Source: a virus | Taxonomy: Duplodnaviria; Caudoviricetes | IMG/VR virus record: IMGVR_UViG_3300048073_000020 | Location: 1 to 54,245 of that record | Reading direction: 5' to 3' (one strand) | Length of the DNA: 54,245 nt | In this document: in pieces, positions 3,693 to 32,492 of the stretch | Position numbering within the stretch: the first letter of the stretch is position 1 | How the letters are laid out: every line of letters starts with the position of its first letter | Translations under genes and position numbers: made by a program | Notes under the pieces: generated by a model | Told to the model about the DNA's origin: nothing | What the model saw: only the letters and a program-made list of their open reading frames with translations | Databases searched by the model: none

Positions 3693-4091
3693 ATGGGCAT
3701 CCCTTCGTTTCGCGGCCTCGAACGCGCCTTGCTGGCCCTCGTCGTCGTCCTGCTGCTCGGCGTGTTCTTCGCCGGTCGAGCTTCCGCTGCAACCCTATTC
3801 GTCACCGAGTTCGCCGGGCCGCCTTCGGTGTCGGTCTACTACCAAGCGGCCAACGCCCCCGCCCTCGTCGAGCAGACCGTCGCCATTGGTGGCGCGAGCG
3901 TGCAGTCGGCCGTCTTCGGCAGCTCGACCAAGCTCGTGCGCGTGCATGCCGACGTAGCCTGCAGCGTGGTCGTAGGCGGCACGAACCCCACCGCCACCGC
4001 CACGAGCATGCGACTAGCTGCAGGGCAAACCGAATACTTCGTCGTCATTCCCGGCCAGCGTCTTGCGGTGATCGTCGCGGCGGTGCCGTGA
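3693..4091 (+). CDS. signal-peptide-bearing beta-rich protein
   Basis: Hydrophobic N-terminus ending ASA-A; mature part LVRVHADVACSVVVGGTNPTATATSMRLAAGQTEYF. Confidence 0.7.
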   Translation: MGIPSFRGLERALLALVVVLLLGVFFAGRASAATLFVTEFAGPPSVSVYYQAANAPALVEQTVAIGGASVQSAVFGSSTKLVRVHADVACSVVVGGTNPTATATSMRLAAGQTEYFVVIPGQRLAVIVAAVP

Positions 4092-4324
4092 TGCATGCCG
4101 CAGCCCGCATCGTGCTCGGGCTCGTAGTGGCAACGCTGCTCGTCGGCGTGTTCGCTATCGCGCACGGGCAAAGCGTAGGCCGCGTCGGTGGCGTGGGCGC
4201 TTTCATGAGCCCCAAGCCTGCCGGCGGTGGCACGCCCGCCAACACGTTTCGCATCGTCACCGAAGGCAATGCGAACTTAGTCACAGAATCTAGCGTCGTC
4301 ATTGAAACCGAGGCTGCCCCATGA
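4088..4324 (+). CDS. small signal-peptide-bearing protein
   Basis: RIVLGLVVATLLVGVFAIAHG-Q; overlaps both neighbours by 4 bp. Confidence 0.6.
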   Translation: MMHAAARIVLGLVVATLLVGVFAIAHGQSVGRVGGVGAFMSPKPAGGGTPANTFRIVTEGNANLVTESSVVIETEAAP

Positions 4325-4863
4325 AACGTTTTGCATTACTGCTGCTTTCGGCAGCCCTTACCCTTGCGGCTGGCATCGCGGTCGCGCAGGTCAAAATATC
4401 CGAGCTGCCGGCGGCTGGCGCTCTTGCAGGCACCGAGCCCGTTCCTATCGTGCAAGGCGGCGCAACGGTGCGCACGACCGCTACGGCTATCGCTGCGCTC
4501 GCCGGGGGCACGACCCTCGCCTCGGGCATTTGGACGCCGACCTGCACGCTAGGCTCGAACGCCGAAGCCTGCACGGGCGTTGCGGGCGTTTACCTGCGCG
4601 TCGGCTCGTCGGTGCAGTGGTCGGCGCGTCTGAACGCTGACAGTTCGGGCAGCGCTACCTTTACCGTCAATATCTCGCTGCCGGTCGCGTCGAACTTCGC
4701 AGCCGTTACCGACGGCATAGGTACATGCGTCTCGCCCACGACCTCGGCCAGCGTTGGCGGCGCGCAGGCTGACGGCACGGCCGATAACCTTGCGATTAAC
4801 TTCGTAGCGACGCAGACAAGCTCGCAGACGTATTACTGCTCGGGCACCTACCGCGTGATATGA
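4321..4863 (+). CDS. exported fibre-like protein
   Basis: Signal peptide MKRFALLLLSAALTLAAGIAVA-Q; KISELPAA...VPIVQGGAT fibre-like N-terminal motif; 4 Cys. Confidence 0.7.
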   Translation: MKRFALLLLSAALTLAAGIAVAQVKISELPAAGALAGTEPVPIVQGGATVRTTATAIAALAGGTTLASGIWTPTCTLGSNAEACTGVAGVYLRVGSSVQWSARLNADSSGSATFTVNISLPVASNFAAVTDGIGTCVSPTTSASVGGAQADGTADNLAINFVATQTSSQTYYCSGTYRVI

Positions 4864-4901: not shown

Positions 4902-5330
4902 ATGTTGAAACGTTTTCTACTGGCCCTCGCTGCCGCAGCCGTCACTCTCGTAGCCGCCCCCGCATCTGCCGCCACCGCCGCGCTTAACGTGTCGTGGACG
5001 CTGCCGACGCAAGGCTGCGTGAACCCGCCGAGCTGCACGCAGAATGTGCCGTTAACCGGCGAGTATGCGTTGACGGCTATCAAGCTCTACGTATCGACGA
5101 GCCCGATTGCTGATACGTCCACGATGACACCCTCGGCCACGTTCGGCGCGGGTGTGACGACTGCAACGTACAACGCCACCGTAGCGAACGGCGATACGCT
5201 GTACGTGCGGGTCAAGGCTACGAATGCGTTCGGCGACTCGGCGTTCTCGACCGAGGTAGCCAAGCTCGTGACCGTGCCAGCCCGCCCCGGCGTGCCGACC
5301 TCGGTTACGGTGACGCTGACCATTACCTAG
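4902..5330 (+). CDS. exported fibronectin type III-like protein
   Basis: Signal peptide ending ASA-A; VSWTLPT...YVRVKATNAFGDSAFS FN3 pattern; RBS AAGGA. Confidence 0.75.
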   Translation: MLKRFLLALAAAAVTLVAAPASAATAALNVSWTLPTQGCVNPPSCTQNVPLTGEYALTAIKLYVSTSPIADTSTMTPSATFGAGVTTATYNATVANGDTLYVRVKATNAFGDSAFSTEVAKLVTVPARPGVPTSVTVTLTIT

Positions 5331-5802: not shown

Positions 5803-7497
5803 ATGAATGCGGTAGTAGCGCCCGCGCCGTTCGATTGGCGGAACCCCGACTATGTGTCGGTGTTCAAGCAGCGAGCGGCACGCCTAGCGAAACTTCGGGC
5901 CGACCCGATGATGCTGCTAGACGTTCGGCGCTACTACCGCACGCACCCCGACGACTTCATCAACGATTGGGGCATCACGGTCGATACGCGCGTCGTTGCG
6001 AAGGGCCGCTCGTCGATAATGCCCCTGCTGCTATGGCCCAAGCAGCGCGAATACGTGCAATGGTTATACAAACGTTGGACGAAGGGCGAAGATGGCGTCG
6101 TCGTCAAGTCTCGCGACGTTGGTATCTCGTGGCTTGCGATGGCGTTCTCGTCAACGCTCGGAATATTCTACGACGATGTTTCTATCGGCTTCGGCAGTGA
6201 AAAGGAAGACAAAGTAGACCGCAGCGGCGACCCCGACTGCTTGTTCTACAAGGGCCGAATGTTTCTTACGTATCTGCCTGCCGAGTTCAACGGCGGGTGG
6301 ACGCTCAAGAGTAACAGCGCGCACATGCGCCTCTCGTTTCCGCTGACGGGCTCGTCAATCACGGGTGAAGCCGGCGACAACATCGGGCGCGGTGGCCGTA
6401 AGGCGTTGTACTTCGTAGACGAATCGGCGCACATCCCGAACCCGAAGGCTATCGACGCTTCGCTTATCGCCAACACCGAGACGCGCATCGATATGTCGAG
6501 CGTTAACGGCATGGCGAATAGTTTCGCCGAGCGTGCCCACAATCCAAACATCGAGCGCTTCGACTTCGCGCTCGAAGACGACCCACGCCGCGACGAGGAA
6601 TATTGGCGCGTCAAGCGTGCGAAGACCGACCCCGTTGTCTTCGCTGCCGAGTACGAGCGCAATTTCTCCGCGTCTATCGAAGGCGTCGTTATCCCGGCGT
6701 TGTGGGTGACGAGTTCGTTAGATGCGCACAAGCGTCTCGGGCTCAAGCCGTCAGGGCTGCGACGTGCCGCAATGGACGTTGCCGACGGTGGCGCGGACGC
6801 GAACGCATACGGCGTTGCAGACGACTTCCTCGTGCAGCATGTTGAATCGTGGAAGGGCTCGGCCGACCTCGATATCTTCCATAGCGTCGAGAAAGCGTTC
6901 CTACTGTCAGACCTGCACGGCCTGCCCGGCTTCCACTACGACGCCGACGGCCTCGGTGCCAGCGTTCGAGGCGACGCGCGCAAGGTCAACGAGAAGCGCA
7001 TCGAGCAGGAAATGCGCGAACTGATCGTCGAGGCGTTCCGGGGCAGCGCCGAGGTGTTCGACCCCGAGCGCATCGTCGAGGGCACCGAACGCAAGGCCGA
7101 AGATTTCTTCGAGAACTTGAAGGCGCAAGCATGGTGGCTGCTGCGTGACCGCTTCCGTTACACGCACCACGTCGTCGAGTATTTCAAGGAACACGGCACG
7201 CTTCCGACCGACTTCGAAATCGAGCGGTTCATCTCGATATCGTCCGAGTTCGCCGAGTCGGCCAAGCTGCGCACCGAACTCTCGCAGCCTGTATGGGCGA
7301 CCTCGAAGCGCGGTAAGGTCATGGTCGATAAGTGCCCGGTCGGCACGAAGACCGAGGTACGCCGGGCCATCAAGTCGCCAAACTTGGCCGACACCGTTAT
7401 GATGCTCTTTGCCCCGTTCCGCCCGGCGATGGTCATCAACCCCGCTATTCTTCAACTCGCGAGCACCGCTGCCCATGTTCCGCAACGTCGCTACTAG
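5803..7497 (+). CDS. terL: terminase large subunit
   Basis: Walker A-like VVKSRDVGISW, Walker B YFVDESAH, nuclease MDVADGG and SPNLADT. Confidence 0.92.
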   Translation: MNAVVAPAPFDWRNPDYVSVFKQRAARLAKLRADPMMLLDVRRYYRTHPDDFINDWGITVDTRVVAKGRSSIMPLLLWPKQREYVQWLYKRWTKGEDGVVVKSRDVGISWLAMAFSSTLGIFYDDVSIGFGSEKEDKVDRSGDPDCLFYKGRMFLTYLPAEFNGGWTLKSNSAHMRLSFPLTGSSITGEAGDNIGRGGRKALYFVDESAHIPNPKAIDASLIANTETRIDMSSVNGMANSFAERAHNPNIERFDFALEDDPRRDEEYWRVKRAKTDPVVFAAEYERNFSASIEGVVIPALWVTSSLDAHKRLGLKPSGLRRAAMDVADGGADANAYGVADDFLVQHVESWKGSADLDIFHSVEKAFLLSDLHGLPGFHYDADGLGASVRGDARKVNEKRIEQEMRELIVEAFRGSAEVFDPERIVEGTERKAEDFFENLKAQAWWLLRDRFRYTHHVVEYFKEHGTLPTDFEIERFISISSEFAESAKLRTELSQPVWATSKRGKVMVDKCPVGTKTEVRRAIKSPNLADTVMMLFAPFRPAMVINPAILQLASTAAHVPQRRY

Positions 7498-9235
7498 TCT
7501 TCGTAACGCCCTGCGCCGATGGCTCGGGGTCGTGGACGCCGCTACCCCCGCCCCCAAGCAGGCCGAGGGCATGAGCATCGCCCACGAGCTTCTAATCAAG
7601 GCCGGCGAGAAAGTGGTACACCGCAAGGTCGAGCCCCCGAAACTATTCCCCGGTGTCGTGCCGGCCTCGACGCAGTTCACTGCCGACCCTGGCGCGCTCG
7701 GGCCGTTCATAGCGGCCGATAGTGAATTGCTCGCCCCTGCATACAGCTACGCAAATCAAGCGTACTGCGGCCTCGGGTTTCCGGGCTACGCCTACCTTGC
7801 CGAACTGTCGCAGCGATCCGAGTATCGAAGCCCGAGCGAAACGATTGCCAGCGAAATGACACGCGAATGGATTGCGCTAGTAGTCAAGGGCGCTGCACGC
7901 CGCGACAACAAGCCGCAAGACAAGCAGCGCATGCAAGACGACGACCTCGGCGAAGACGCGTTGCCCGAGGAAGCGCCGACCGAAGGCGACGACGAGGGCC
8001 AGGACGACGAGACGCAAAAGAAAATCGAATTGCTGACGGAAGCAATGGAAGAATTCAAGGTGCGCGAAGCCCTCGGCAAGTGCGCCGAACTCGACGGGCT
8101 ATTCGGCCGTGCGCAGATTTTCATCGACATAGACACCGCCGGCCGCGAACGTGACGAAGTGCGGCAGCTTCCTCTCGTGATTTCGAAGGAAACAATTAAG
8201 AAAGGTTCGCTTAAAGCGTTGACCGTGGTCGAGCCTATTTGGACGACGCCATTTACATACAACGCGAGCGACCCCACTGCCCCCGATTTCTACAAGCCGA
8301 AAGCGTGGTTTATCCTCGGCAAGCGCACGCACGCGTCGCGGCTGCTTACTTTCATCATGCGCGAAGTGCCGGATATCCTGAAACCGGCTTACAACTTCGG
8401 CGGCTTGAGCATGACGCAGTTGATGGAATCGTATGTATTCCGGTGGCTGCGCACGTCGAACTCGGTCAGCGACCTGATTCACAATTTTAGCGTGATGGCC
8501 CTCTCGACGGACATGACGCAGATTCTACAGGGCAAGGCTGACAAGCCCGGCGGTCTGCTCGACCGCGCGCGTTTGTTTGTAGCGACTCGCGACAATCAGG
8601 GCTTGACCCTGCTCGACAAAGACAAGGAAGAACTAAACGCGGTGAACGTGCCGCTGTCGGGGCTCGAAGGCTTGCAAGCGCAGTCGCAAGAGCAAATGGC
8701 CGGCCCTTCGCACATCCCGCTCGTGAAGCTGCTCGGCATCACGCCTACCGGCTTGAACGCATCGAGCGAGGGGGAAATCAAAGTTTTCTACGACTTCGTG
8801 CGCGCATGTCAGCAGAAGTTTTACGCCGAGCACTTGAATACAATTCTGCAGCTCTTGCAGCTTCACCTATTCGGCGAGGTTGATGATTCTATCGGCTTCG
8901 AGTTTAAGCCGCTGTCGAGCCCGACAGTCAAAGAACTCGCCGAGATTCGCAAGGCGAACGCCGATACCGCTGCCGTGTACATCGACAAGGGTGTGATATC
9001 GCCCGACGAAGTGCGCGCGAAAGTTAACAACGACCCCGAATCGGGATACGACAACCTCACGGGCGACGCACCCCCACCGCCAACGCAGGTTGACGCCGAG
9101 CACGGTGCCGAGCTTGACGAGCAAGCGGCCGGCGCTGCGCACGAGCGTGGGGAAGAATCGGCCGAGGCTGCACACGAACGGCAGCTCGAAGCCGACAAGG
9201 CGGCGGCGAAGAACAAGCCGAAGGCGACCGCGTGA
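7475..9235 (+). CDS. portal protein (DUF1073-like)
   Basis: Follows terL; IPLVKLLGITPTGLNASSEGE motif. Confidence 0.85.
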   Translation: MFRNVATSLRNALRRWLGVVDAATPAPKQAEGMSIAHELLIKAGEKVVHRKVEPPKLFPGVVPASTQFTADPGALGPFIAADSELLAPAYSYANQAYCGLGFPGYAYLAELSQRSEYRSPSETIASEMTREWIALVVKGAARRDNKPQDKQRMQDDDLGEDALPEEAPTEGDDEGQDDETQKKIELLTEAMEEFKVREALGKCAELDGLFGRAQIFIDIDTAGRERDEVRQLPLVISKETIKKGSLKALTVVEPIWTTPFTYNASDPTAPDFYKPKAWFILGKRTHASRLLTFIMREVPDILKPAYNFGGLSMTQLMESYVFRWLRTSNSVSDLIHNFSVMALSTDMTQILQGKADKPGGLLDRARLFVATRDNQGLTLLDKDKEELNAVNVPLSGLEGLQAQSQEQMAGPSHIPLVKLLGITPTGLNASSEGEIKVFYDFVRACQQKFYAEHLNTILQLLQLHLFGEVDDSIGFEFKPLSSPTVKELAEIRKANADTAAVYIDKGVISPDEVRAKVNNDPESGYDNLTGDAPPPPTQVDAEHGAELDEQAAGAAHERGEESAEAAHERQLEADKAAAKNKPKATA

Positions 9236-23792: not shown

Positions 23793-24142
23793 AAACCCTA
23801 TTACTCGACAACACGTATTGGGATTTGCTCGCCGACGCGGCCGGGAATATCGCCGTCGCTGCCGAGCCCTACGCCTATGCGCAGGACGTGGCGAGCGCGC
23901 AGAAATTGTTCCTTGCCGAGTGCTGGTACGACGTGTCGCGGGGCATCCCCTACTTCGAAACCGTGCTCGGGCAGACGCCCCCGGTGTCATACTTTCAAGA
24001 GCTTATGGTGCGGGCGGCCCTTACGGTTCCCGGCATCGTGTCTGCCGAGTGTACAATCGAGGGCTTCGAAAATCGCACCGTTGAAGGGCAGACCATTGCC
24101 CGCACCGCGACCGGGCAACAAGTTCGAGTGAGTCTGCAGTAA
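23789..24142 (+). CDS. baseplate wedge subunit (gp25-like)
   Basis: LFLAECWYD..GIPY; synteny. Confidence 0.7.
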   Translation: MKTLLLDNTYWDLLADAAGNIAVAAEPYAYAQDVASAQKLFLAECWYDVSRGIPYFETVLGQTPPVSYFQELMVRAALTVPGIVSAECTIEGFENRTVEGQTIARTATGQQVRVSLQ

Positions 24143-25362
24143 TGGCAACAAACGTACCCCCGGTCGTCTTCACCCCCACCGGCCCCGACGTGCCCCAAGA
24201 GTCGGCGGTGCTCGCGGGCGTCAAGCAGGACATTAACGACGCGTTCGGCGGTCAGTTGAACATGGACGCCCCCGAGACGCCGCAAGGGCAGCTCGCGGCC
24301 TCACAAGCTGCCATCGTGGCAGATTGCAACGAGCGGTGGGCGTACCTCGTGAACCAAATCGACCCGGACACGGCCGAGGGGTTCATGCAAGACGCTATCG
24401 CGCGTATCTACTTCCTCGACCGCAGCCCCGGCGCACCGACGGCCGTGCAGTGCTTGTGCTCGGGCTCGGCCGGTGTGGTCATCCCCGTCGGTGCCGAGGC
24501 GCAGGACACGAGCGGCAACCGCTACGTTTGCACGCAAGAGGGTGTGATTCCGATTTCGGGCTCGATAACCCTGTCGTTCGCGAACGTTCTCGACGGCCCG
24601 ATCCCTTGCCCGGCCAACACGTTGACCATTATCTACCGCGCTATTCCGGGGTGGGATTCGATCAACAACCCGACGCCGGGCGTTGCGGGCCGTCTCGTCG
24701 AGACTCGCGCCGAGTTCGAGTTCAGGCGACGCAACTCGGTGGCGTTGAATGCTCGCGGCTCGCTGCCCTCGATCTACTCGGCGGTGTTCGACGTTGATGA
24801 TGTAATCGACGTATTCGCCTACGAGAACACCACGAACGCGCCGTTAGATGTTGGCAGCACCGATTACACGATGGTGCCGCACTCGCTCTATGTTGCAGTG
24901 GTCGGCGGCGACGCGCAGGAAATTGCCGAGGCGATTTGGCGTAAAAAGGATGTGGGCTGCGACTACAACGGCAACACCTCGGTAATCGTGAAAGATACGA
25001 GCGGCTATCAGGCACCCGAGCCAACGTACACCGTCAAGTTCGAGCGCCCTGCGTCGCTGCCGATTTTCTTCCGCGTCGAGATTGCGGCCTCGGTGTCGCT
25101 GCCTGCGGATATCGAGCAGCTTGTGCGTGCAGCGATCATCGCAGCGTTTAACGGGCTCGACGGCGGCCAGCGTGCGCGCATCGGCTCTATGATCCTCGCG
25201 TCGCGCTTCGTTGGCCCCGTGCAGCGGATCGGCCCCGAGGTTTCCATCTTGTCGATTCTGATCGGCACGAGCGGCCCCGGTGCGTTGAACTCGGTACTTG
25301 TGGGCATCGACCAAGCGCCGACCGTTGACGAGAACGATATCACCGTCGTCATTACGCCGTAA
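24142..25362 (+). CDS. baseplate J-like wedge protein
   Basis: ETPQGQLA, GRLVETRAEFEFRR, PHSLYVAVVGG. Confidence 0.8.
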   Translation: MATNVPPVVFTPTGPDVPQESAVLAGVKQDINDAFGGQLNMDAPETPQGQLAASQAAIVADCNERWAYLVNQIDPDTAEGFMQDAIARIYFLDRSPGAPTAVQCLCSGSAGVVIPVGAEAQDTSGNRYVCTQEGVIPISGSITLSFANVLDGPIPCPANTLTIIYRAIPGWDSINNPTPGVAGRLVETRAEFEFRRRNSVALNARGSLPSIYSAVFDVDDVIDVFAYENTTNAPLDVGSTDYTMVPHSLYVAVVGGDAQEIAEAIWRKKDVGCDYNGNTSVIVKDTSGYQAPEPTYTVKFERPASLPIFFRVEIAASVSLPADIEQLVRAAIIAAFNGLDGGQRARIGSMILASRFVGPVQRIGPEVSILSILIGTSGPGALNSVLVGIDQAPTVDENDITVVITP

Positions 25363-25366
25363 CGAT

Positions 25367-26023
25367 ATGCAAAACGTCGGCCGCACAATCATCTCGCAGT
25401 ATGCGAACTCGCCCACGATTCGCGCGCTTATCGAGAACTTTAACGAGTACATCGACCCGCGCGCGAACCTCGACGCGTTTTACGAGATGGTGTGGAACGT
25501 TGACACTGCCGTCGGTGTCGGCCTCGACATTTGGGGCCGCATCGTCGGCGTATCTCGTCTGCTGCAGCTCACATCGAACCGCGATACGTTCGGCTATCTA
25601 AATGACGACTTCCCGCCGGATTGGGCACCGTTCAACCAAGGCACGTTTTCGACTGGCAGCGAACTGACGCAAGCCTATGAACTCGCCGACGACGCCTACC
25701 GGGTTTTGATCCTGACGAAAGCGTTATCGAACATCGTCGCCACGAACGCGCCCTCGTTGAACGCCCTGCTGCAGAATCTGTTTCCCGGTCGTGGCCGTGC
25801 CTACGTGCTCGACCTCGGGGGCATGGCGATGCGCTTCGTGTTCGAGTTCTCGCTTACGACCATCGAATACGCGATACTCACGCAGTCGGGCGCGCTGCCG
25901 CACCCGGCCGGCGTGCGTTATAGCGTGCTCGTGTTGCCGACGGCTGGCTTGTTCGGCTTCAAGGAAAACGGGCCGCTCGTGCAGCCTTTCGACTACGGTG
26001 TCTTCTATCAACCGCCGGTGTAA
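25367..26023 (+). CDS. baseplate wedge protein (DUF2612-like)
   Basis: SQYANSP, AVGVGLDIWGRIVG, LPHPAGV. Confidence 0.75.
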   Translation: MQNVGRTIISQYANSPTIRALIENFNEYIDPRANLDAFYEMVWNVDTAVGVGLDIWGRIVGVSRLLQLTSNRDTFGYLNDDFPPDWAPFNQGTFSTGSELTQAYELADDAYRVLILTKALSNIVATNAPSLNALLQNLFPGRGRAYVLDLGGMAMRFVFEFSLTTIEYAILTQSGALPHPAGVRYSVLVLPTAGLFGFKENGPLVQPFDYGVFYQPPV

Positions 26024-26026
26024 ATA

Positions 26027-27364
26027 ATGGCCGCCCCAACACCCCCGTTTATTCCGCAGGCTTTCGCGAACAACGCGGCCGGCGCATATCGCAACACGAT
26101 CCCCGACACGACCGTTACGCCGGGTCGTGCGTCGTTCAATCTCGGGTTTCCGCCTATCACAATGACCCCGGTCATTTCCGGCGGTCGGCCCCCGCTCGGC
26201 CAGGATGTGAACGGCATCCTGTATATGATTTCGTCGCACACGGTCTACCAGCAAACCGGGCAGCCGTACCGGTGGGCGAGCGCCGTAGCGACTGCTATCG
26301 GCGGTTACGCCGTGGGCACCCTGCTCGGCAGCACCGACGGCGCGACCCTTTGGTACAACATCGTAAACAACAACAGCACGGACCCCGACGCGGGCGGTGC
26401 CGGGTGGGTTGCGATGTATTCCTACGGCATCGCGAGCGTCAGCGGTGTGACCGGTGGCGTGCGCACGCTGACGGCGGCCGAGGCTGCGAAGTCGGTCATT
26501 GTGCTGACGGGTACGTTAGTCGCGAATCTGCAGCTTGTGGTTCCGAATCAGGTTCGGCGCTGGCTGATTATCAACGCGACTACGGGCTTGTTCTCGGTCA
26601 CGGTGAAGACGAGCGGCGGTTCGGGCGTGGCCGTGCCGAACGGCGGCTTTACGAATCCTGTCGAAGTGTGGAGCGACGCGACGAATGTTTACAACGTCGT
26701 TGCGCCGGTGAACTTGCCGATTGACCAAGCGCCGAACCCGCTGACCATCGTACAGCGAACGAACGCGGGCTACGTGTATGCGGTCTACTTCAATCAGTCG
26801 AGCGCTATCGAGAACCTGCCGGCCTCGTCGATTTTCTTCGAGTACAACAACGACGGCTTTCTGCGGAAGATTGCGCCGACTGCTTTGCAAGCGCAGCTCT
26901 TGCTCGCGAACTTCGCCGGGCAAGTCTCGAACGCACAAGTACCCGTGGGTGCGGTCAATCAGTGGCGCGGCACTATCCTCGACAATTCGGCGCTGACGGG
27001 TACGCCCACGGCACCGACGCCGAGCGCGGGCGATAATTCTTCGCGTGTTGCAACGACTGCGTTCGTGCAAGCGACGGCCTCGATTGGTTACGGTCAGTCG
27101 TGGACGTTGCCCGGCAAAGACAAGAACATCACATACACGAACTCGACGGGCCGCCCTATCGAGGTCGTCGTCTCGATCAACATCACGAGCGGCGGCGGCA
27201 ACGTCAACGTGCTCGTAGGTGCCGTGCAGATTGTCACAACGTCGAACGGTTCGTCGGCCGACAACGAAATCGCTATCACGTTCACCGTGCCCGCCGGGCA
27301 AACGTACCGAGTCAACGGCAGCGGCGCTCGCACTAACGTCGCACGTTGGGCCGAGCTTGTCTAA
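26027..27364 (+). CDS. tail fibre protein
   Basis: GFPPITMTP..GGRPP..DVNGILY anchor; ALTGTPTAPTPSAGDNSSRVATTAFVQ repeat; YTNSTGRPI C-terminal domain. Confidence 0.85.
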   Translation: MAAPTPPFIPQAFANNAAGAYRNTIPDTTVTPGRASFNLGFPPITMTPVISGGRPPLGQDVNGILYMISSHTVYQQTGQPYRWASAVATAIGGYAVGTLLGSTDGATLWYNIVNNNSTDPDAGGAGWVAMYSYGIASVSGVTGGVRTLTAAEAAKSVIVLTGTLVANLQLVVPNQVRRWLIINATTGLFSVTVKTSGGSGVAVPNGGFTNPVEVWSDATNVYNVVAPVNLPIDQAPNPLTIVQRTNAGYVYAVYFNQSSAIENLPASSIFFEYNNDGFLRKIAPTALQAQLLLANFAGQVSNAQVPVGAVNQWRGTILDNSALTGTPTAPTPSAGDNSSRVATTAFVQATASIGYGQSWTLPGKDKNITYTNSTGRPIEVVVSINITSGGGNVNVLVGAVQIVTTSNGSSADNEIAITFTVPAGQTYRVNGSGARTNVARWAELV

Positions 27365-27376
27365 GAGGTTGCAAAC

Positions 27377-28096
27377 ATGTCCGGCGTAATCGTTCCAACT
27401 AACATTGTCGTCAAGCCGTTCGGCGCGGATGCCGACCCGACGTATATACAACTGCCTATCCCGATCCCCGATCAAACATTGACCGAGCCGGGTGCGGCAG
27501 CGTTCGACACGGGCTTCGGGCCGCTCAACATGACCGACCTTGCAGCGGGTGGTATCCCGCCGCGAGGCCGCGACATGAACGGCATCCTGTACATGATTAC
27601 CGCGTATATCGCGCTGCTGCAGGCCGGCCAGCGGGTCAACTGGAACGAAGACGCAAGCGACGCGTTTACCGGGTACGCAATCGGTGCCGAGGTCGCGAGC
27701 ATCACCACGCCGGGCCGAGTGTGGGTGAACCTGCTCGACGCCAACGTCAACGACCCGGACGACGACGACACCGGGTGGCGCGCGCTCGATCCGCTGACCG
27801 CTACGACGCCGCTGTCTGGCGCGCAGAATAACGTCGTGCTGCCAGGGGCCAGCGACTACGCCCTCGATATTGATACGACGGCGGGCGCATGTGATATTTC
27901 GGGCTTCGTCGCCCAACGCAACGGGCAGATTCTTTACGTGTCGAACGTAGGGGCGAACCTGTTGCAGATTCTCGCGAATAGCGGCTTGTCTACTGCCGAC
28001 AATCGAATCAGGGCAGCGACCGACCTTGCACTCGTGACGAATCAAACTTTGACGTTGCAATGGTTCTCCGGCCTCGATAGGTGGTTACTAACATGA
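27377..28096 (+). CDS. second short fibre/adaptor sharing the fibre anchor domain
   Basis: GGIPPRGRDMNGILYMI paralogous to GGRPPLGQDVNGILYMI. Confidence 0.7.
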   Translation: MSGVIVPTNIVVKPFGADADPTYIQLPIPIPDQTLTEPGAAAFDTGFGPLNMTDLAAGGIPPRGRDMNGILYMITAYIALLQAGQRVNWNEDASDAFTGYAIGAEVASITTPGRVWVNLLDANVNDPDDDDTGWRALDPLTATTPLSGAQNNVVLPGASDYALDIDTTAGACDISGFVAQRNGQILYVSNVGANLLQILANSGLSTADNRIRAATDLALVTNQTLTLQWFSGLDRWLLT

Positions 28097-29790
28097 TGAA
28101 GCACGCACGCATTGCCCTAGCAGCTCTTGCACTGACGGTTGCGTCAGTCGTCAACGCTGCTACGTTTAATTTGTTCCAGCCGGCGAACGGTATCTTAGTC
28201 GGCAACCCTTCGACGTATGTGACCACTGCGGCCACATCCTCGACGGTTATCTCGTTGTGGTCTGGCACTTGTAACTCTTCGACGTTCTTGCGCGGCGATG
28301 GTGCCTGCGCGGCGGCCGGTGGCAACCCTGCCGGCACGTCGGGGCAAATGCAGTACAACAACGGCGGCGTGTTTGCCGGCGCGAAACTTTACTACGATCC
28401 GAACTACGTCGGCGCGGGCATCCCTGCGTTCACGCTAGGCGACGGCGCGAATGCAACGGCCGCCGTATTTGGCCCGACCGCAGCGAACGCGACCTCGGCC
28501 GGCGGCACGCTCGTCGTAAAGGGTGCAGCCGGTGGCGCGACCTCGGGTAACGGTGGCGCGGTTCAATACAACGGCGGCGACGCGACGAGCGGCACCGGCG
28601 GCACGGCTACACTGTCGGGCGGCGCAGGTACGCTCGGCGGCAATGTGATGATTGCCGGCGGCATCGGCGGTGCCGGTGGCGTGCTCGACTTTTGGACGGC
28701 CGGCAGCTCGCGATTGCAGATTGCTGGCAACGGCGAATGGACCGTCAGCGGTGACACGGGTAGCGCGTCGCAGGTTCTCACATGGGGCGCGAGCGGCCCG
28801 ACTTGGGAAACGCCTACCGGTGGCGTCAGTCTCGGCGGCACTAACACATGGACCGCGCAGAATACTTGGTCGAACGCTACGCCCGCGTTGCGCTTGTTTA
28901 CTACTGGCGCGGCAACGGATCGCAAAGACATTCGCCTCGAAGCTTCGGCGTCGGGTCAACTGCAGTTGAACTCGTACACCGATGCCGGGTCGCTAATGAA
29001 CTCGCTCATTATCGCGAGTCGCGCTTCGGGCGGTTTCACTACGACGACGTTCGGCCACAATAACGGCACCGTCAACGTCGCGGGTACTTCGCTTGTGCTG
29101 CAGGCGAACGGCGGCAGCCGAATGACGGTTGCGTCTAACGGGCAAATCACAACCGCAGCGCCGTCGGCTGGCGGCCCTGGCTTCACCATCAACGGCCCGA
29201 GCGTCAACGGCATGTCGTTGTATGTTCACGGCGACGCTGGCACCGGCACCTCGAACGGTGTGCAAATCGACGCCGGCACGAACGCCAGCGATGCCGCGTT
29301 GACGGTGCAGGACGTGACGGCCTCGACGAACTTCCTAACCATCGACGGCGCAGGTAGCGCGACAATGGGCAACGCGCAGACGGCGCAGGGCGCTGGCACG
29401 TTGAACGCGGGCGGCCTGTACGTGGCCGGCAACGCAGTTTGCCAAGCGAACGGCACGAATTGCCCGGCACCGGGCGGCACGTCGCTCGTGCCTCGCAGCT
29501 TTTCTACGACCGACAACACGCAATCGACCGACTGTGGCAAGGTGCTCTTGTTCACCGGTGCGGGCTCGCAGACTCTTACGCTTGATTCCGACCCCGCTGT
29601 AAACTGCGTGCTTACCATCGTCAACGCGGGCTCGGGCTCGCTGTCGGTCGCGGCAACGGCGCTTAGTTGGTACAACGGGTCGGGCACCATCGGCAGCGGT
29701 ACGCGAACGATTGCAGTCGGTGCCGTGGTGACTGCGACCGTGTTTACGACGTTGGGCTCTTGGTCGATTTGGGGCGGTGGCATTCTATGA
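28093..29790 (+). CDS. Gly/Thr-rich fibre/adhesin-like protein with Sec-type signal peptide
   Basis: MMKHARIALAALALTVASVVNA-A; SSTFLRGDG, GTSGQMQYNNGG, QVLTWGASGPTW fibre-like motifs; 6 Cys in three local pairs. Confidence 0.75.
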   Translation: MMKHARIALAALALTVASVVNAATFNLFQPANGILVGNPSTYVTTAATSSTVISLWSGTCNSSTFLRGDGACAAAGGNPAGTSGQMQYNNGGVFAGAKLYYDPNYVGAGIPAFTLGDGANATAAVFGPTAANATSAGGTLVVKGAAGGATSGNGGAVQYNGGDATSGTGGTATLSGGAGTLGGNVMIAGGIGGAGGVLDFWTAGSSRLQIAGNGEWTVSGDTGSASQVLTWGASGPTWETPTGGVSLGGTNTWTAQNTWSNATPALRLFTTGAATDRKDIRLEASASGQLQLNSYTDAGSLMNSLIIASRASGGFTTTTFGHNNGTVNVAGTSLVLQANGGSRMTVASNGQITTAAPSAGGPGFTINGPSVNGMSLYVHGDAGTGTSNGVQIDAGTNASDAALTVQDVTASTNFLTIDGAGSATMGNAQTAQGAGTLNAGGLYVAGNAVCQANGTNCPAPGGTSLVPRSFSTTDNTQSTDCGKVLLFTGAGSQTLTLDSDPAVNCVLTIVNAGSGSLSVAATALSWYNGSGTIGSGTRTIAVGAVVTATVFTTLGSWSIWGGGIL

Positions 29791-30293
29791 AAAAGTTTGC
29801 ACTCTTCGTTCTCGCTGCGCTGCTGCCGATTGCGTCAGCCACACCGCAAGCAATGTCGTATGCGACCCCGACGCAGGTCTTAGCGTCTGGTTACATCACT
29901 GTCGGCAGTGCGAGCGGATTCACCGGTTACAAGGCCGGCAATCTGATTTGCACCGGTATCAATACGCTTGCCGGCTCGTACACCACGACGCAGGGTACAA
30001 GCTCGCTTGCAATGAATAACTTCGGCATCTCGTGCGCGATGTCGCTGTCGGGCACTTACGATTTCCTGATCGGCTCGAATCAAAGCCAGCCGCAAAATTA
30101 TTTCAGCTACATACGAGTAGTCGATACGGCGGGCTCGGTGCGCATCTACACCTCGGCCTCGGCGACCTACAACACCTCGGGCTCGTTTCGCTCGTGGCGG
30201 TGGGGCACCGGGTCGTCGATGGTCTTCACGGGCACTTGCACCGGTGGCGGTGGCCCTGGCGGCAACTCTTGCTTGATGACAATTTTTCGGTGA
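29787..30293 (+). CDS. exported beta-rich protein
   Basis: MKKFALFVLAALLPIASA-T; 4 Cys; ATGA overlap. Confidence 0.7.
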   Translation: MKKFALFVLAALLPIASATPQAMSYATPTQVLASGYITVGSASGFTGYKAGNLICTGINTLAGSYTTTQGTSSLAMNNFGISCAMSLSGTYDFLIGSNQSQPQNYFSYIRVVDTAGSVRIYTSASATYNTSGSFRSWRWGTGSSMVFTGTCTGGGGPGGNSCLMTIFR

Positions 30294-30376
30294 CGCACGT
30301 CACAATTCCGGCAGATCGACGGCCGGGTAAATCTTACTAACGGTTCAGTGATAACCCTCGGCGCGGATTAGCGACA

Positions 30377-30694
30377 ATGAACGAGCAGACACAACAAGCA
30401 GTCTTTCGCGAATTGGGCTCAATGGACGCGCGCATAGGCAACATCGAAAACGACGTTTCGGAACACAAGGCAGATATGCGCGAGGTGAAGGCGGCGGTAG
30501 CTGCCATCCCCGCGCTGACTGCAAGCCTTGTGGATTTGCAAGCGTCGGTGAAAGTTCTCGTAGAACGCGGGCAGCAAGAAACCGGTGCGCGTCGCATGCT
30601 ATGGAAAGTCGGCGGGGCTGCCGGCACCGGCGGCGCGCTCTTGACTGCGGTCGGCCAATGGGTGACGGACCTCTTACACCGGGGCACGCCGTGA
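30377..30694 (+). CDS. coiled-coil protein with C-terminal hydrophobic segment, possible holin
   Basis: Directly upstream of endolysin candidate. Confidence 0.45.
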   Translation: MNEQTQQAVFRELGSMDARIGNIENDVSEHKADMREVKAAVAAIPALTASLVDLQASVKVLVERGQQETGARRMLWKVGGAAGTGGALLTAVGQWVTDLLHRGTP

Positions 30695-31170
30695 ACCTCG
30701 CCGATATCCGCGACTACGTGGTGCGCCCGGCCTTGTGGGCACTCGGGCTTGACCAGCCGGCGCGCGTGCAGCTCGTTATAGGAACGGGCGGCACCGAGTC
30801 GGGGTACAACTACCTCGACCAGACGACGCCCGGCCCTGGCCCCGCTTACGGCTTCTGGCAAATGGAAAAGGCGACCCACGACGACTTGTGGCGCAACTTC
30901 ATCAACTACCAGCCGAGCGCGTTCCGCGACACGCTCTTGCAGCTCGCTGGCACCTCGCGCGTTCCGCCCGAGGTCACGGTCATGCACTGGAATCTTCGTT
31001 ACGCGGCGGCGATGTGCGGCGTGCATTATCGACGTTTGAAAGCAGCGCTGCCCGCCGAGGGTGACGCGCAAGCGATGGCGGCCTACTGGAAACAGTTCTA
31101 CAACACGCCGCAGGGCAAGGGTACAATCGCGAAGGCACTACCCTATTTCCAAGAGGCTTGCAAACTATGA
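30691..31170 (+). CDS. putative endolysin (lysozyme-like fold)
   Basis: TESG..GPAYGFWQME..YWKQFYNTPQGKG; lysis-cassette position. Confidence 0.6.
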   Translation: MNLADIRDYVVRPALWALGLDQPARVQLVIGTGGTESGYNYLDQTTPGPGPAYGFWQMEKATHDDLWRNFINYQPSAFRDTLLQLAGTSRVPPEVTVMHWNLRYAAAMCGVHYRRLKAALPAEGDAQAMAAYWKQFYNTPQGKGTIAKALPYFQEACKL

Positions 31171-31586
31171 AACGCTTACTGCTCGTTGCTGCCGCGCTCG
31201 TCGGTCTAGCCGGTTGCGCATCCACACCCGACGGCCAAGACAAGGAACGGTTCGCGGTCGAGACTGGCATCGTGCTCGTGCTCGAAAACAGCTCGCAGCC
31301 GGCGCAGCGCGCGGCCGAGATTGTGGACACCATCGACAAGTTGCAAAACATGCTCACGCAAGAGCAGACGACCGTCGGCGACCTGCGTAGCGCCCTCTTG
31401 AAGCGCATCGGCGAGCGTAGCCTATCGCCGGGCGAAAAAGCGCTCGCGCTGCAGGTTGCGGGGCGGATCGCCGAGCAGATCGAAACACGAGTCGGTAAAG
31501 GTTACATGTCGGCCGATTCTGTGATATCAATCGACCGGGTGCTCGGGTGGGCCGAGAACATGGCGGCACTGTATGTTTCTGACTGA
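31167..31586 (+). CDS. lipoprotein, possible lysis accessory
   Basis: MKRLLLVAAALVGLAGC lipobox. Confidence 0.7.
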   Translation: MKRLLLVAAALVGLAGCASTPDGQDKERFAVETGIVLVLENSSQPAQRAAEIVDTIDKLQNMLTQEQTTVGDLRSALLKRIGERSLSPGEKALALQVAGRIAEQIETRVGKGYMSADSVISIDRVLGWAENMAALYVSD

Positions 31587-31971
31587 TTTAGACCTGCGAG
31601 CAACTGCACCGGGCTACGGTCGGTTGCTCGCGCCTCTCGTGTGGGGCGACCTGCGTTACGGCACCGTCGTCATTCCTGCCGGCACCGACACCGACCTCGG
31701 CAGCACCCCGCAAATGCTGCGACGGTTCCGGGCGTTCGATCCCTGGCACACGGGCCGCAAGGCCGCCGTCGTACACGACTACCTTTACCGCAACGGCAAA
31801 TGGCCCGACGGCCGCGTCTGCAGCCGCGCAGACGCCGACGAGTTCTTGCGGGTCGCGATGGTCGCCGAGGGTTACAGCGCGTCCGTGGCGCGTTCGTGGT
31901 GGCTTGGCGTGCGTTCCTGCGGCTGGCTGCCGTGGCGCGACTACCGCAACGCCGAGCAGAAAATCGCTTAA
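31573..31971 (+). CDS. DUF1353-like protein
   Basis: IPAGTDTDLGSTP, AAVVHDYLY, SRADADEF. Confidence 0.7.
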   Translation: MFLTDLDLRATAPGYGRLLAPLVWGDLRYGTVVIPAGTDTDLGSTPQMLRRFRAFDPWHTGRKAAVVHDYLYRNGKWPDGRVCSRADADEFLRVAMVAEGYSASVARSWWLGVRSCGWLPWRDYRNAEQKIA

Positions 31972-32006
31972 CATATAACAGCCGGTCATGCCCGGCTGTA
32001 TTCTGT
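31971..32006 (+). repeat. 36-bp palindrome copy B: ACATATAACAGCCGG-TCATGC-CCGGCTGTATTCTGT
   Basis: Matches copies A and C; at a convergent gene junction. Confidence 0.75.
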
Positions 32007-32492
32007 TAACTTAGTTTCTTTACTTAGATATAACGGGTGCCTCGGGTGCCCGGCCTTGGTCGTGCCGAGGCACATCACCGGCTTGCCGATGGTCTGCAGC
32101 ATCCGCGCCGGAATCGCTGGGCAGACGAACGAATGCGCGCCCCAAGCGACGACGACCGTTTCGGCGACCGTTGCCATGTTCCGCACATACACGTCGTTCA
32201 ACGGCCCTATAGGGTCTTCCGCGCGCTGCAGCTCGTCGGGGTCGGTGGCCCGAAATGAGTACAGGTTGCCGACCGCGAGCCCGTCGTAACCCCACGCTCG
32301 CGAGAACCCGATAATGCGCTCGATGGTCCGGTCGTCAAGGAAGGCGTTCGCGGTGCTCGGGTTGAGCATCACCCACAACACCCACCGCTTCGGGTGCTCG
32401 ACCCACCAACGATGCAACGACGTGCGGTAGCGCCCGCATGTGCTTATCGTGGCCGCTCGCCGAATCTGTACTGCAATTGCTTCGTGTAACAC
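31986..32492 (-). CDS. DUF1643-like protein
   Basis: CGRYR, WVMLNPSTA, NLYSFRATDP, VVAWG, GHPRHPLY. Confidence 0.8.
   Translation of the reverse strand: MLHEAIAVQIRRAATISTCGRYRTSLHRWWVEHPKRWVLWVMLNPSTANAFLDDRTIERIIGFSRAWGYDGLAVGNLYSFRATDPDELQRAEDPIGPLNDVYVRNMATVAETVVVAWGAHSFVCPAIPARMLQTIGKPVMCLGTTKAGHPRHPLYLSKETKLTEYSRA

Follow-up and report, generated by a model that had tools for sequence, protein, structure and literature searches.

The virus record IMGVR_UViG_3300048073_000020 of the IMG/VR database, from an uncultured soil phage, encodes a tail-fibre-like protein of 565 amino acids (aa) that carries a predicted Sec signal peptide and is preceded by the gene of a short leaderless adaptor. 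The window analysed here is the whole record, 54,245 bp in length and rated 100% complete. Our preferred reading, which we consider somewhat better than evenly balanced, is that the 565-aa protein is a Sec-exported, disulfide-bonded distal fibre that docks on a baseplate stub built in the cytoplasm, and does so only at lysis. The evidence behind it is the leader, which is kept throughout the protein family, the constant pairing of adaptor and fibre genes, and a complex model, checked against controls, in which the predicted mature N-terminus of the fibre lies on the C-terminal domain of the adaptor. A wider reading, to which we give slightly less than even weight, is that of a large, wholly uncultured group of tailed phages whose particles are finished in two compartments and armed only at the holin breach, with the cassette moving as a unit among contractile, short, and long tails.

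Organization of the Fibre Cassette

The cassette and the ordinary fibre gene before it comprise the following features.

26027–27364, + strand: ordinary leaderless tail fibre, 445 aa, no cysteine; phrog_12796 (6e-60), phrog_38625, and phrog_1396
27377–28096, + strand: adaptor, leaderless, 239 aa, with an N-terminal anchor and a C-terminal docking domain; phrog_11982 (9e-24), tail-fibre PHROGs on the N-terminal half
27464–27781, + strand: anchor domain of the adaptor, about aa 30–135, paralogue of the N-terminus of the 445-aa fibre; phrog_12796 on aa 30–155
27791–28093, + strand: docking domain of the adaptor, aa 139–239, XD1-like beta-sandwich (alignment, fold search)
28079–28084, + strand: Shine-Dalgarno-like AGGTGG, 8 nucleotides before the ATG at 28093 (sequence reading)
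28093–29790, + strand: leader-bearing fibre, 565-aa precursor; ATGA overlap with the adaptor stop
28093–28158, + strand: predicted signal peptide of the fibre, aa 1–22, predicted cut after V-N-A (n/h/c regions, −3/−1 rule)
28159–28317, + strand: conserved mature N-terminal module, aa 23–75, with Cys60–Cys72, the predicted docking end (alignment, model)
29440–29463, + strand: junction motif C-x6-C (Cys450, Cys457) before the C-terminal domain (alignment)
29482–29787, + strand: C-terminal XD1-like beta-sandwich of the fibre, aa 464–565, with Cys481–Cys505 (structure model, PDB scan)
29787–30293, + strand: leader-bearing protein of 168 aa with 4 cysteines, leader aa 1–18 at 29787–29840; ATGA overlap with the fibre stop

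An earlier, sequence-only reading of this DNA had described two translationally coupled genes with signal peptides, located after an ordinary fibre without cysteines or signal and after a short paralogue of its anchor domain at 27377. It had also listed the fibre-like motifs SSTFLRGDG, GQMQYNNGG, and QVL..GPTW and three local cysteine pairs in the 565-aa protein, as well as four cysteines in the 168-aa protein. The present analysis bore out this description. Both genes start in ATGA overlaps and carry leaders of the Sec/signal peptidase I type; the ordinary fibre has 445 aa, no leader, and no cysteine; and the 239-aa adaptor shares its N-terminal domain with that fibre. The three motifs are present, the cysteine pairs of the 565-aa protein fall at 60/72, 450/457, and 481/505, and the cysteines of the 168-aa protein are at 55, 83, 151, and 162. 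In every syntenic locus, the counterparts of the 445-aa fibre and the adaptor gave cross-matches with each other.

Predicted Leader of the Fibre

The leaders were assessed with a rule-based script of our own (n/h/c regions, −3/−1 rule) rather than a trained predictor. Both cassette open reading frames (ORFs) begin with a basic stretch, followed by an uncharged hydrophobic stretch and a small-x-small site; in the 565-aa protein, these are M-M-K-H-A-R, an uncharged stretch, and V-N-A before the predicted cut. By the n/h-region and −3/−1 criteria, the 565-aa and 168-aa proteins are both predicted substrates of Sec and signal peptidase I. A true start downstream of the hydrophobic segment, which the sequence-only reading had set beforehand as its counter-case, is ruled out by the start codons and the conserved mature module: no in-frame ATG, GTG, or TTG occurs between codons 3 and 26, and any start beyond the hydrophobic segment would cut into that module.

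A survey of homologues, suggested in the same reading, found the leader kept throughout the family (141 distinct sequences, being 120 listed relatives pooled with the fibres from the loci described below). All 120 listed relatives start with a hydrophobic leader; in P0088 it is followed by a different mature N-terminus, and in P0101 it is shortened. Among the 141 sequences, residue −1 is A in 111, G in 17, S in 2, T in 1, and Q in 10 (A/G/S/T in 131), and residue −3 is A in 106, V in 11, L in 7, G in 4, and one of a few others in the rest (A/V/L/G/T/I in 130), with residue −2 unconstrained. A net positive charge of the n-region is seen in 140 of the 141 sequences; median lengths are 24 aa for the presequence and 16 for the uncharged run. 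The leader sequence itself drifts freely, and the residues after the cut, x-T-F/Y-N-L-F-x-P-A-x-G-I-L, are nearly invariant; the invariant columns in 19 sequences were F28, P30, G33, L35, G37, T41, T44, A47, G58, T59, C60, G70, and C72. A variable leader before an invariant mature start is the pattern of a cleaved Sec leader and is hard to square with a true start further downstream.

A profile of the first 130 residues, run against 1.84 billion cluster representatives, gave 3,267 matches at E ≤ 1e-3, 948 at 1e-10, and 289 at 1e-30. The leader was found in 103 of the 110 listed profile matches that had not been seen before. One of the seven leaderless proteins has a TFNLF-type start with a shortened leader; the other six are very long (1,207–2,923 aa), have ordinary fibre N-termini, and hold only an internal repeat in common with the 565-aa fibre. 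The proteins that matched internally keep the leader and continue with another mature N-terminus, of the ISxLP or YPNA type.

It is also conceivable that the leader does not export the protein. The fibre would then be captured in the cytoplasm by the adaptor made from the same mRNA, with the leader acting as an assembly or timing element or as a membrane tether, and with the cysteines oxidised after release. Translational coupling, which puts both proteins together, and the modelled contact, which begins right after the leader, are consistent with such a capture. Disulfide networks reported in a phage built in the cytoplasm (PMC10811340) also speak for it. However, the conserved A-x-A site, the positive n-region, and the short h-region together mark cleaved Sec leaders and not anchors, and the 168-aa protein has a leader of its own, which is kept in both its relatives. 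We consider cytoplasmic capture quite improbable.

Export by the twin-arginine translocation (Tat) route was rejected for the 565-aa protein: a near-invariant R-R would be expected, and the leader in the window has none. A subgroup of leaders with the twin-arginine-like R-R-A-Y-x-A-L-G was observed in P0010, P0030, P0048, and P0068 and in loci L008, L009, L013, and L024. These leaders were read as Sec-type because K-R or Q-R occupies the corresponding position in close relatives.

The Conserved Adaptor–Fibre Pair

Relatives were located in 40 IMG/VR loci and on one contig of a metagenome-assembled genome (MAG); the module was N-terminal in 32 loci, and nine matched only internal repeats. The leader was present in all 32 loci with the N-terminal module, and a docking-domain protein was encoded directly upstream of the leader-bearing fibre in 29 of the 31 with upstream DNA. 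This upstream partner is leaderless, ends at or overlaps the fibre start, and aligns over its last ~100 residues with adaptor residues 140–239. With starts chosen by script, the overlap was an ATGA in 18 of 28 adaptor–fibre pairs. Conservation of the docking domain extended to all 28 adaptors aligned, irrespective of the N-terminus.

About two dozen myovirus loci have adaptors with the fibre-anchor N-terminus and the gene order baseplate J, gpI-like, fibre, adaptor, leader-bearing fibre. The N-terminus is of the ISxLP type in L016, L020, L023, and L047, where the adaptor gene lies among other virion structural genes, and of other types in L022 and L026, the latter following a 1,231-aa “tail protein” (phrog_4271). 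Thus, the docking domain and the leader-bearing fibre travel together while the anchor is exchanged, which is the behaviour of a docking pair. In addition, docking-domain distances track the distances between fibre N-terminal modules (r 0.36, reached by 0 of 5000 permutations), compared with r 0.13 for anchor distances (reached by 820 of 5000); this correlation counts as weak evidence, because the genes are linked and adjacent.

The ISxLP motif was observed in two settings, namely at the leaderless N-terminus of adaptors (L016 5167–5613, L020 5363–5938, L023 5462–5926, and L047 3052–3642) and directly after the leader in long leader-bearing fibres; proteins with this motif also include P0165, P0181, P0203, and P0229. 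From these positions, the attachment motif seems to serve on either side of the membrane. In the siphovirus-like locus L026, the fibre is followed by a second leader-bearing protein (7170–8585) of 471 aa without a PHROG family, which is another candidate exported partner.

Structure of the Adaptor and the Modelled Contact

The AlphaFold2 (AF2) model of the adaptor had a mean predicted local distance difference test (pLDDT) score of 78.8, with values above 90 from about residue 100 to 239. Tail-fibre PHROGs cover residues 14–171, and the fold of the anchor domain matched the baseplate/tail-fibre chain 9b45_2 of Pseudomonas phage Pa193 (Z 7.2, root-mean-square deviation (rmsd) 3.1, 89 residues aligned) as well as the N-termini of Acinetobacter tailspikes. 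The docking domain, residues 139–239, matched XD1 of CBA120 TSP4 (79–175; Z 8.4, rmsd 3.3, 91 aligned), T4 gp10 (49–146; Z 7.2), T4 gp9 (66–163; Z 6.0), and N- or C-terminal domains of Acinetobacter tailspikes. Overall, the adaptor is similar to the N-terminal part, anchor plus XD1, of myophage tailspikes and to T4 gp9/gp10. In this search, unrelated rows had Z ≤ 3.5, a Z near 8 is middling, and Foldseek E-values were about 1e-3; the assignments hold at the fold level only.

A trimeric model of the fibre with the product of 27377, also suggested in the sequence-only reading, was built from three copies of adaptor residues 140–239 and three of mature fibre residues 23–110, each with its own 28-row alignment. 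The mature fibre N-terminus was placed on the docking domain with a median trimer–trimer score of 0.87 (runs 0.90, 0.87, and 0.02), as against 0.26 for the best of three controls, and the partner pLDDT was at least 75. Of 80 solved complexes, 58 reached the mark used for such models, as did 2 of 110 mismatched pairs, in a calibration on single-chain pairs with other alignments and no trimers. On the fibre side, the modelled contact comprises residues 23–27, 29, and 40–42, that is, the first residues after the predicted cut; on the adaptor side, it comprises residues 195, 197, 214–218, 220, 223, and 225. At the level of a prediction, the model supports binding of the mature fibre N-terminus to the docking domain of the adaptor.

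Cysteine Pairs

Cysteines are even in number in the mature part of 118 of 120 relatives and in 105 of the 110 further profile matches. The frequency of cysteine is 1.41% in the fibres versus 0.29% in the adaptors. The C-x6-C junction motif precedes differing C-terminal domains in the relatives. Judged from the sequences, the cysteines would pair into disulfides.

The very long leaderless fibres P0123, P0124, P0172, and P0174 (1,207–2,923 aa) share the internal repeat. In P0124, W stands in place of the second cysteine of the C-x11-C pair (…LRGDGTW versus …LRGDGSC in the leader-bearing family), and the cysteine pair may be an adaptation of the leader-bearing version.

The C-terminal Domain and the 168-aa Protein

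The AF2 model of fibre residues 440–565 had a mean pLDDT of 66.3, and its last ~100 residues formed a beta-sandwich. A scan of the full PDB, in which unrelated rows had Z ≤ 5.5, matched this domain to Acinetobacter phage Solidus gp83 (604–701; Z 11.9, rmsd 2.7, 95 aligned), the Pa223 capsid spike (197–294; Z 11.7), CpaA (chain 6o38_A; Z 10.8), and TSP4 (79–181; Z 9.3). The C-terminal domain of the fibre and the docking domain of the adaptor fall on the same PDB domains in the fold search; a sequence relationship between the two was rejected (hhalign probability 0.2). The same fold is described beside glycan-binding modules in CpaA and StcE (PMC8825819), so that the C-terminal domain may bind a sugar receptor or carry a further subunit. 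From the models, it would form the receptor-binding tip or else serve the 168-aa protein as a platform.

The same fold bears on another explanation, in which adaptor and fibre bind each other after lysis as free complexes off the particles, for example as soluble binding or polysaccharide-degrading agents. The modelled binding would fit this as well, and glycan-binding modules of two secreted proteases, CpaA and StcE, share the fold of the fibre C-terminus (PMC8825819). However, the N-terminal half of the adaptor is paralogous to the end by which the ordinary fibre is attached to the baseplate, and in other phage backbones the anchor is replaced by another virion-type N-terminus and not lost. 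We regard free complexes as very improbable.

The 168-aa protein had a single relative among 5.8 billion clustered proteins, with 46% identity and the leader kept. A second relative, which was reached via the fibre C-terminal domain, is encoded in L047; it is 47% identical, leader-bearing, and located directly after the fibre, behind an ISxLP-type adaptor. The L047 fibre belongs to another phage backbone and has a different body and the same C-terminal 118 aa (66% identity). In the loci with other fibre C-termini, the next gene is mostly a holin-type ORF in place of the 168-aa gene. This co-inheritance suggests that the 168-aa protein is the partner of this particular C-terminal domain. Judged from the sequence, it would help the fibre to fold in the periplasm or form a subunit of the distal tip. 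A scan of viral contigs with the 168-aa protein gave no match, and it had no usable Atlas match. It did not belong to a known Tfa or gp38 family; the sub-threshold matches were DUF7743 (E 0.0071, 16.5 bits against a cut-off of 27) and phrog_22340 “lipoprotein” (E 0.0031).

Distribution of the Family

In a word-indexed search with the 565-aa protein, 145 of the 7,999 candidates scored were relatives at E ≤ 1e-3; none of them has an assigned protein name, and many are encoded on contigs of about 54 kb. The protein had no Pfam or PHROG family, its nearest Atlas clusters were all viral and unnamed, and a PDB sequence search returned a single chance-level row (E 0.27). The S74 intramolecular-chaperone domain (PF13884), for which the 565-aa protein of the window had no Pfam match, was found in the relatives P0058, P0064, and P0108. 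Since this domain is typical of phage fibres, its presence in some relatives points to the fibre identity of the family.

Cultured phages gave no match to the DNA of 24000–32000 (megablast) or to the 565-aa protein (tblastn), and neither the docking domain nor the mature N-terminal module, searched alone, had a match at E ≤ 1 in 50,697 phage records. Among bacterial genomes, one for each of 185,579 species, a single match was confirmed, on a MAG contig of 5.4 kb; this search was based on a 10-sequence alignment, and its strict patterns could miss distant prophage copies. A moron or lysogenic-conversion gene of the Lom or Bor type was rejected on several grounds: the cassette has no promoter or terminator of its own, GC content is even, one match was found in 185,579 species, and no integrase is present among the 38 window proteins scanned.

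Proposed Assembly and Alternatives

In the assembly that we propose, the fibre would be split in two, with its halves made in two cell compartments. The leaderless 239-aa adaptor would be built into the baseplate in the cytoplasm as a stub. The 565-aa protein would be exported by Sec and cut after residue 22 by signal peptidase I, and the mature fibre would fold and trimerise in the periplasm with three local disulfides. The 168-aa protein would likewise be exported, cut, and oxidised, acting as a helper or tip subunit for the fibre C-terminal domain. Cleavage of the leader would create the very N-terminus, the TFNLF-type module, that plugs into the C-terminal domain of the stub. At lysis, the periplasmic fibres and the particles would mix, and the particle would gain its fibre then. 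Because the inner membrane separates the partners, they would meet only when the holin breaches it. In the usual holin–endolysin logic, a leaderless lysin is released through large holin holes; the lysin candidate of this phage is leaderless, so its lysis should need membrane holes large enough for folded proteins. The sequence-only reading had already proposed that exported receptor-binding parts dock on the 27377 protein at lysis. The universal leader, the constant pair, and the controlled model now support this idea; export, cleavage, disulfides, membership in the virion, and the timing of docking at lysis are the steps that we infer.

The alternative offered by that reading, a receptor-masking decoy or host adhesin, fits the data less well. 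In this case, the fibre would be exported and would never be on the particle; its role would lie in the envelope, either masking or destroying receptors (superinfection exclusion, protection of progeny from debris) or serving as a surface adhesin. The leader and paired cysteines fit an envelope protein, the variable fibre C-termini resemble binding domains, and the phage already owns a leaderless fibre; T5 Llp and lambda Lom are phage envelope proteins encoded beside tail genes. The MAT proteins of Bdellovibrio bacteriovorus have the same layout (PMC10769870). However, the constant partner carries a baseplate-anchor domain, and the complex model scored above its controls. A decoy for the same receptor would be expected to resemble the 445-aa fibre, and the distal part of the 565-aa fibre has no similarity to it; a decoy carrying the phage's own receptor-binding domain was rejected on this ground. 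The near-absence of the family from bacterial genomes argues against a lysogenic-conversion gene, and the lack of a promoter or terminator of its own also counts against an envelope role of the cassette. Taken with both sides, we regard an envelope role as unlikely.

Several points weigh against docking of an exported fibre at lysis. The phage owns a complete leaderless fibre as well, so the leader-bearing one may be dispensable, and docking would have only the brief span around lysis in which to take place, or would need to work after dilution. The module has no match among cultured phages, the case consists wholly of genes and models, and the leader call comes from our own rules instead of a trained predictor. 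Two of the 31 loci with upstream DNA, L027 and L031, have no adaptor upstream and encode an unrelated 95-aa protein instead. One of the three runs of the complex model scored 0.02, and the share of contacts common to the runs is at least 0%. The adaptor contact residues are no better conserved than their domain (0.45 versus 0.50); those of the fibre, among the best-conserved parts of the protein, are so only slightly (0.71 versus 0.63). In CBA120 and T4, XD1 is described as a spacer, and the partners bind the XD2/XD3 jellyrolls (PMC8825819). By model and fold search, these jellyrolls are absent from the adaptor described here, which ends after the XD1-like domain. Finally, disulfide networks are reported in Milano, a phage built in the cytoplasm (PMC10811340), so that paired cysteines alone are no proof of periplasmic folding.

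Comparison With Known Systems

In function, the cassette would resemble the branched or adaptor-borne receptor-binding complexes on gp9/gp10-type domains of CBA120 (TSP4-N with TSP1–3), G7C (gp66 with gp63.1), and T4 (gp10 with gp11/gp12) (PMC8825819). As in the window, a baseplate-anchored protein with an anchor and an XD-type domain carries an exchangeable trimeric receptor-binding protein encoded next to it. All known partners in such complexes are leaderless and cytoplasmic, whereas the partner described here has a Sec leader and paired cysteines. In addition, the adaptor stops after its XD1-like domain, without XD2/XD3, and by Pfam and PHROG there is no sequence membership in the CBA120, G7C, or T4 families.

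Acinetobacter phage WCHABP12 (Obolenskvirus), Pseudomonas phage Amjad_SA, and Burkholderia phage PE067 are cultured relatives of the tail module and have two fibres sharing one N-terminal anchor. They resemble the window in the order of baseplate J, gpI-like protein, fibre(s), and lysis genes and in the anchor domain itself. However, their second fibre is one leaderless chain, and the docking domain and the leader-bearing fibre were found in none of the three.

The MAT fibres of B. bacteriovorus have a signal peptide, a conserved N-domain of ~130 aa, a trimeric fibre, and swappable C-terminal tips, some with an S74 chaperone-protease (PMC10769870). They are chromosomally encoded and sit on the bacterium's own surface, with no known partner of the N-domain, whereas the fibres described here belong to phage tail modules with a dedicated adaptor; the likeness is one of layout.

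Textbook accounts hold tailed-phage morphogenesis to be entirely cytoplasmic. The long tail fibres of T4 are assembled as separate trimers and joined last to finished particles. Late joining is thus shared with the assembly proposed here; in T4, however, both partners are cytoplasmic and no membrane lies between them. Assembly or tip proteins encoded after the fibre gene are known as Tfa of lambda and Mu and gp38 of T4. The 168-aa gene resembles them in that it directly follows the fibre gene, is translationally coupled to it, and moves with the fibre C-terminal domain; unlike them, its product has a leader of its own and four cysteines, and no Tfa/gp38 family match. The coat proteins of filamentous phages are Sec/YidC-dependent and also use the host export machinery, as proposed here, but these phages are tailless and are assembled at the membrane. 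Among tailed phages, the T4 RI antiholin, T5 Llp, and lambda Lom and Bor bear leaders and use host export, and they are no parts of the virion.

A literature search, judged by titles and the beginnings of abstracts and with subscription journals and supplements outside its scope, returned no account of a tailed phage whose tail fibre is exported by Sec. The window contributes the portable adaptor–fibre pair across tail types, the controlled contact model at the predicted cleaved N-terminus, and the leader-bearing partner specific to a C-terminal domain. If the proposed assembly is true, tailed phages would have a second assembly compartment, and infectivity would be tied to lysis. Sec, signal peptidase, and Dsb would become host factors for phage host range. 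It could also explain a possible failure of such fibres when engineering or structural studies rely on cytoplasmic expression. The family is large (3,267 representatives at E ≤ 1e-3) yet invisible in cultured-phage collections, which bears on the annotation of soil phage genomes. The adaptor–fibre pair itself presents a directly testable protein–protein contact.

Genome Context and Lysis Genes

PHROG and Pfam scans identified the genes of a contractile-tailed phage, including sheath, tape measure, hub, and baseplate J. The tape measure protein has a transglycosylase domain. The head and packaging set comprises small and large terminase, portal, head protease, and major head protein, and the replication set is T7-like, with DNA polymerase, primase, helicases, a gp2.5-like single-stranded DNA-binding protein, and an exonuclease. 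No integrase was found among the 38 window proteins scanned. Baseplate J is 46–50% identical to that of cultured myoviruses of Pseudomonas, Burkholderia, Aeromonas, and Acinetobacter. The genes flanking the fibre genes are as follows.

24142–25362: baseplate J
25367–26023: gpI-like protein
30377–30694, + strand: holin-type candidate, coiled coil and C-terminal hydrophobic segment; weak phrog_937 “hemolysin” (E 0.0066)
30601–31170, + strand: lysin candidate without leader, true start probably later in the ORF; phrog_3108 (3e-30)

The fibre cassette lies in the late operon and has no promoter or terminator of its own. Promoter-like sites numbered 2 versus 1.6 in shuffles and terminator-like sites 7 versus 5.9, and none of them frames the cassette genes. 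GC content is even over the whole window, and the GC content at third codon positions of the cassette is like that of the neighbouring genes. A holin-type ORF is the first gene after the leader-bearing fibre in most relatives, with similar small ORFs at that place, and a holin function of 30377–30694 is putative. The lysin candidate has a weak Pfam match to Phage_lysozyme2, under the cut-off, and is conserved in L005, L008, L013, L018, and L019.

The lysin gene is followed by 31167–31586, which encodes a 139-aa lipoprotein with the lipobox L-A-G-C and without a C-terminal membrane segment, and by 31573–31971, which encodes a DUF1353 protein (6e-15; PHROG “tail assembly chaperone”). Neither resembles a standard spanin pair, and both are conserved in L003, L030, and L044. 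A perfect hairpin with an 8-bp stem at 31978–31999, which resembles a terminator on either strand, occurs where the rightward late operon meets the leftward gene 31986–32492 and forms the end of the operon with the fibre cassette and the lysis genes.

Other Leader-Bearing Genes and Additional Observations

Four consecutive small ORFs, all with leaders, were observed at 3693–4091, 4088–4324, 4321–4863, and 4902–5330, between the genes of the small (2034–2822) and large (5803–7497) terminase subunits. In the third, which has four cysteines, the leader is immediately followed by an ISxLP-type motif; the fourth has two cysteines and a weak match to the repeat region of the central tail fibre J (phrog_31, E 4.7e-4). 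Relatives of 4902–5330 lie after the lysin gene in L008 and L013, and a relative of 3693–4091 lies directly after the leader-bearing fibre in L029. The sequence-only reading had linked this operon to the fibre cassette. The leaders, and the relatives of two of its genes beside fibre or lysis genes in other phages, agree with such a link, which is circumstantial only.

The head-morphogenesis protein encoded at 9232–10473 matches phrog_324 (9.5e-67) over aa 189–405 and has an N-terminal NUDIX-like region that matches phrog_1198 (8.8e-16) over aa 80–183.

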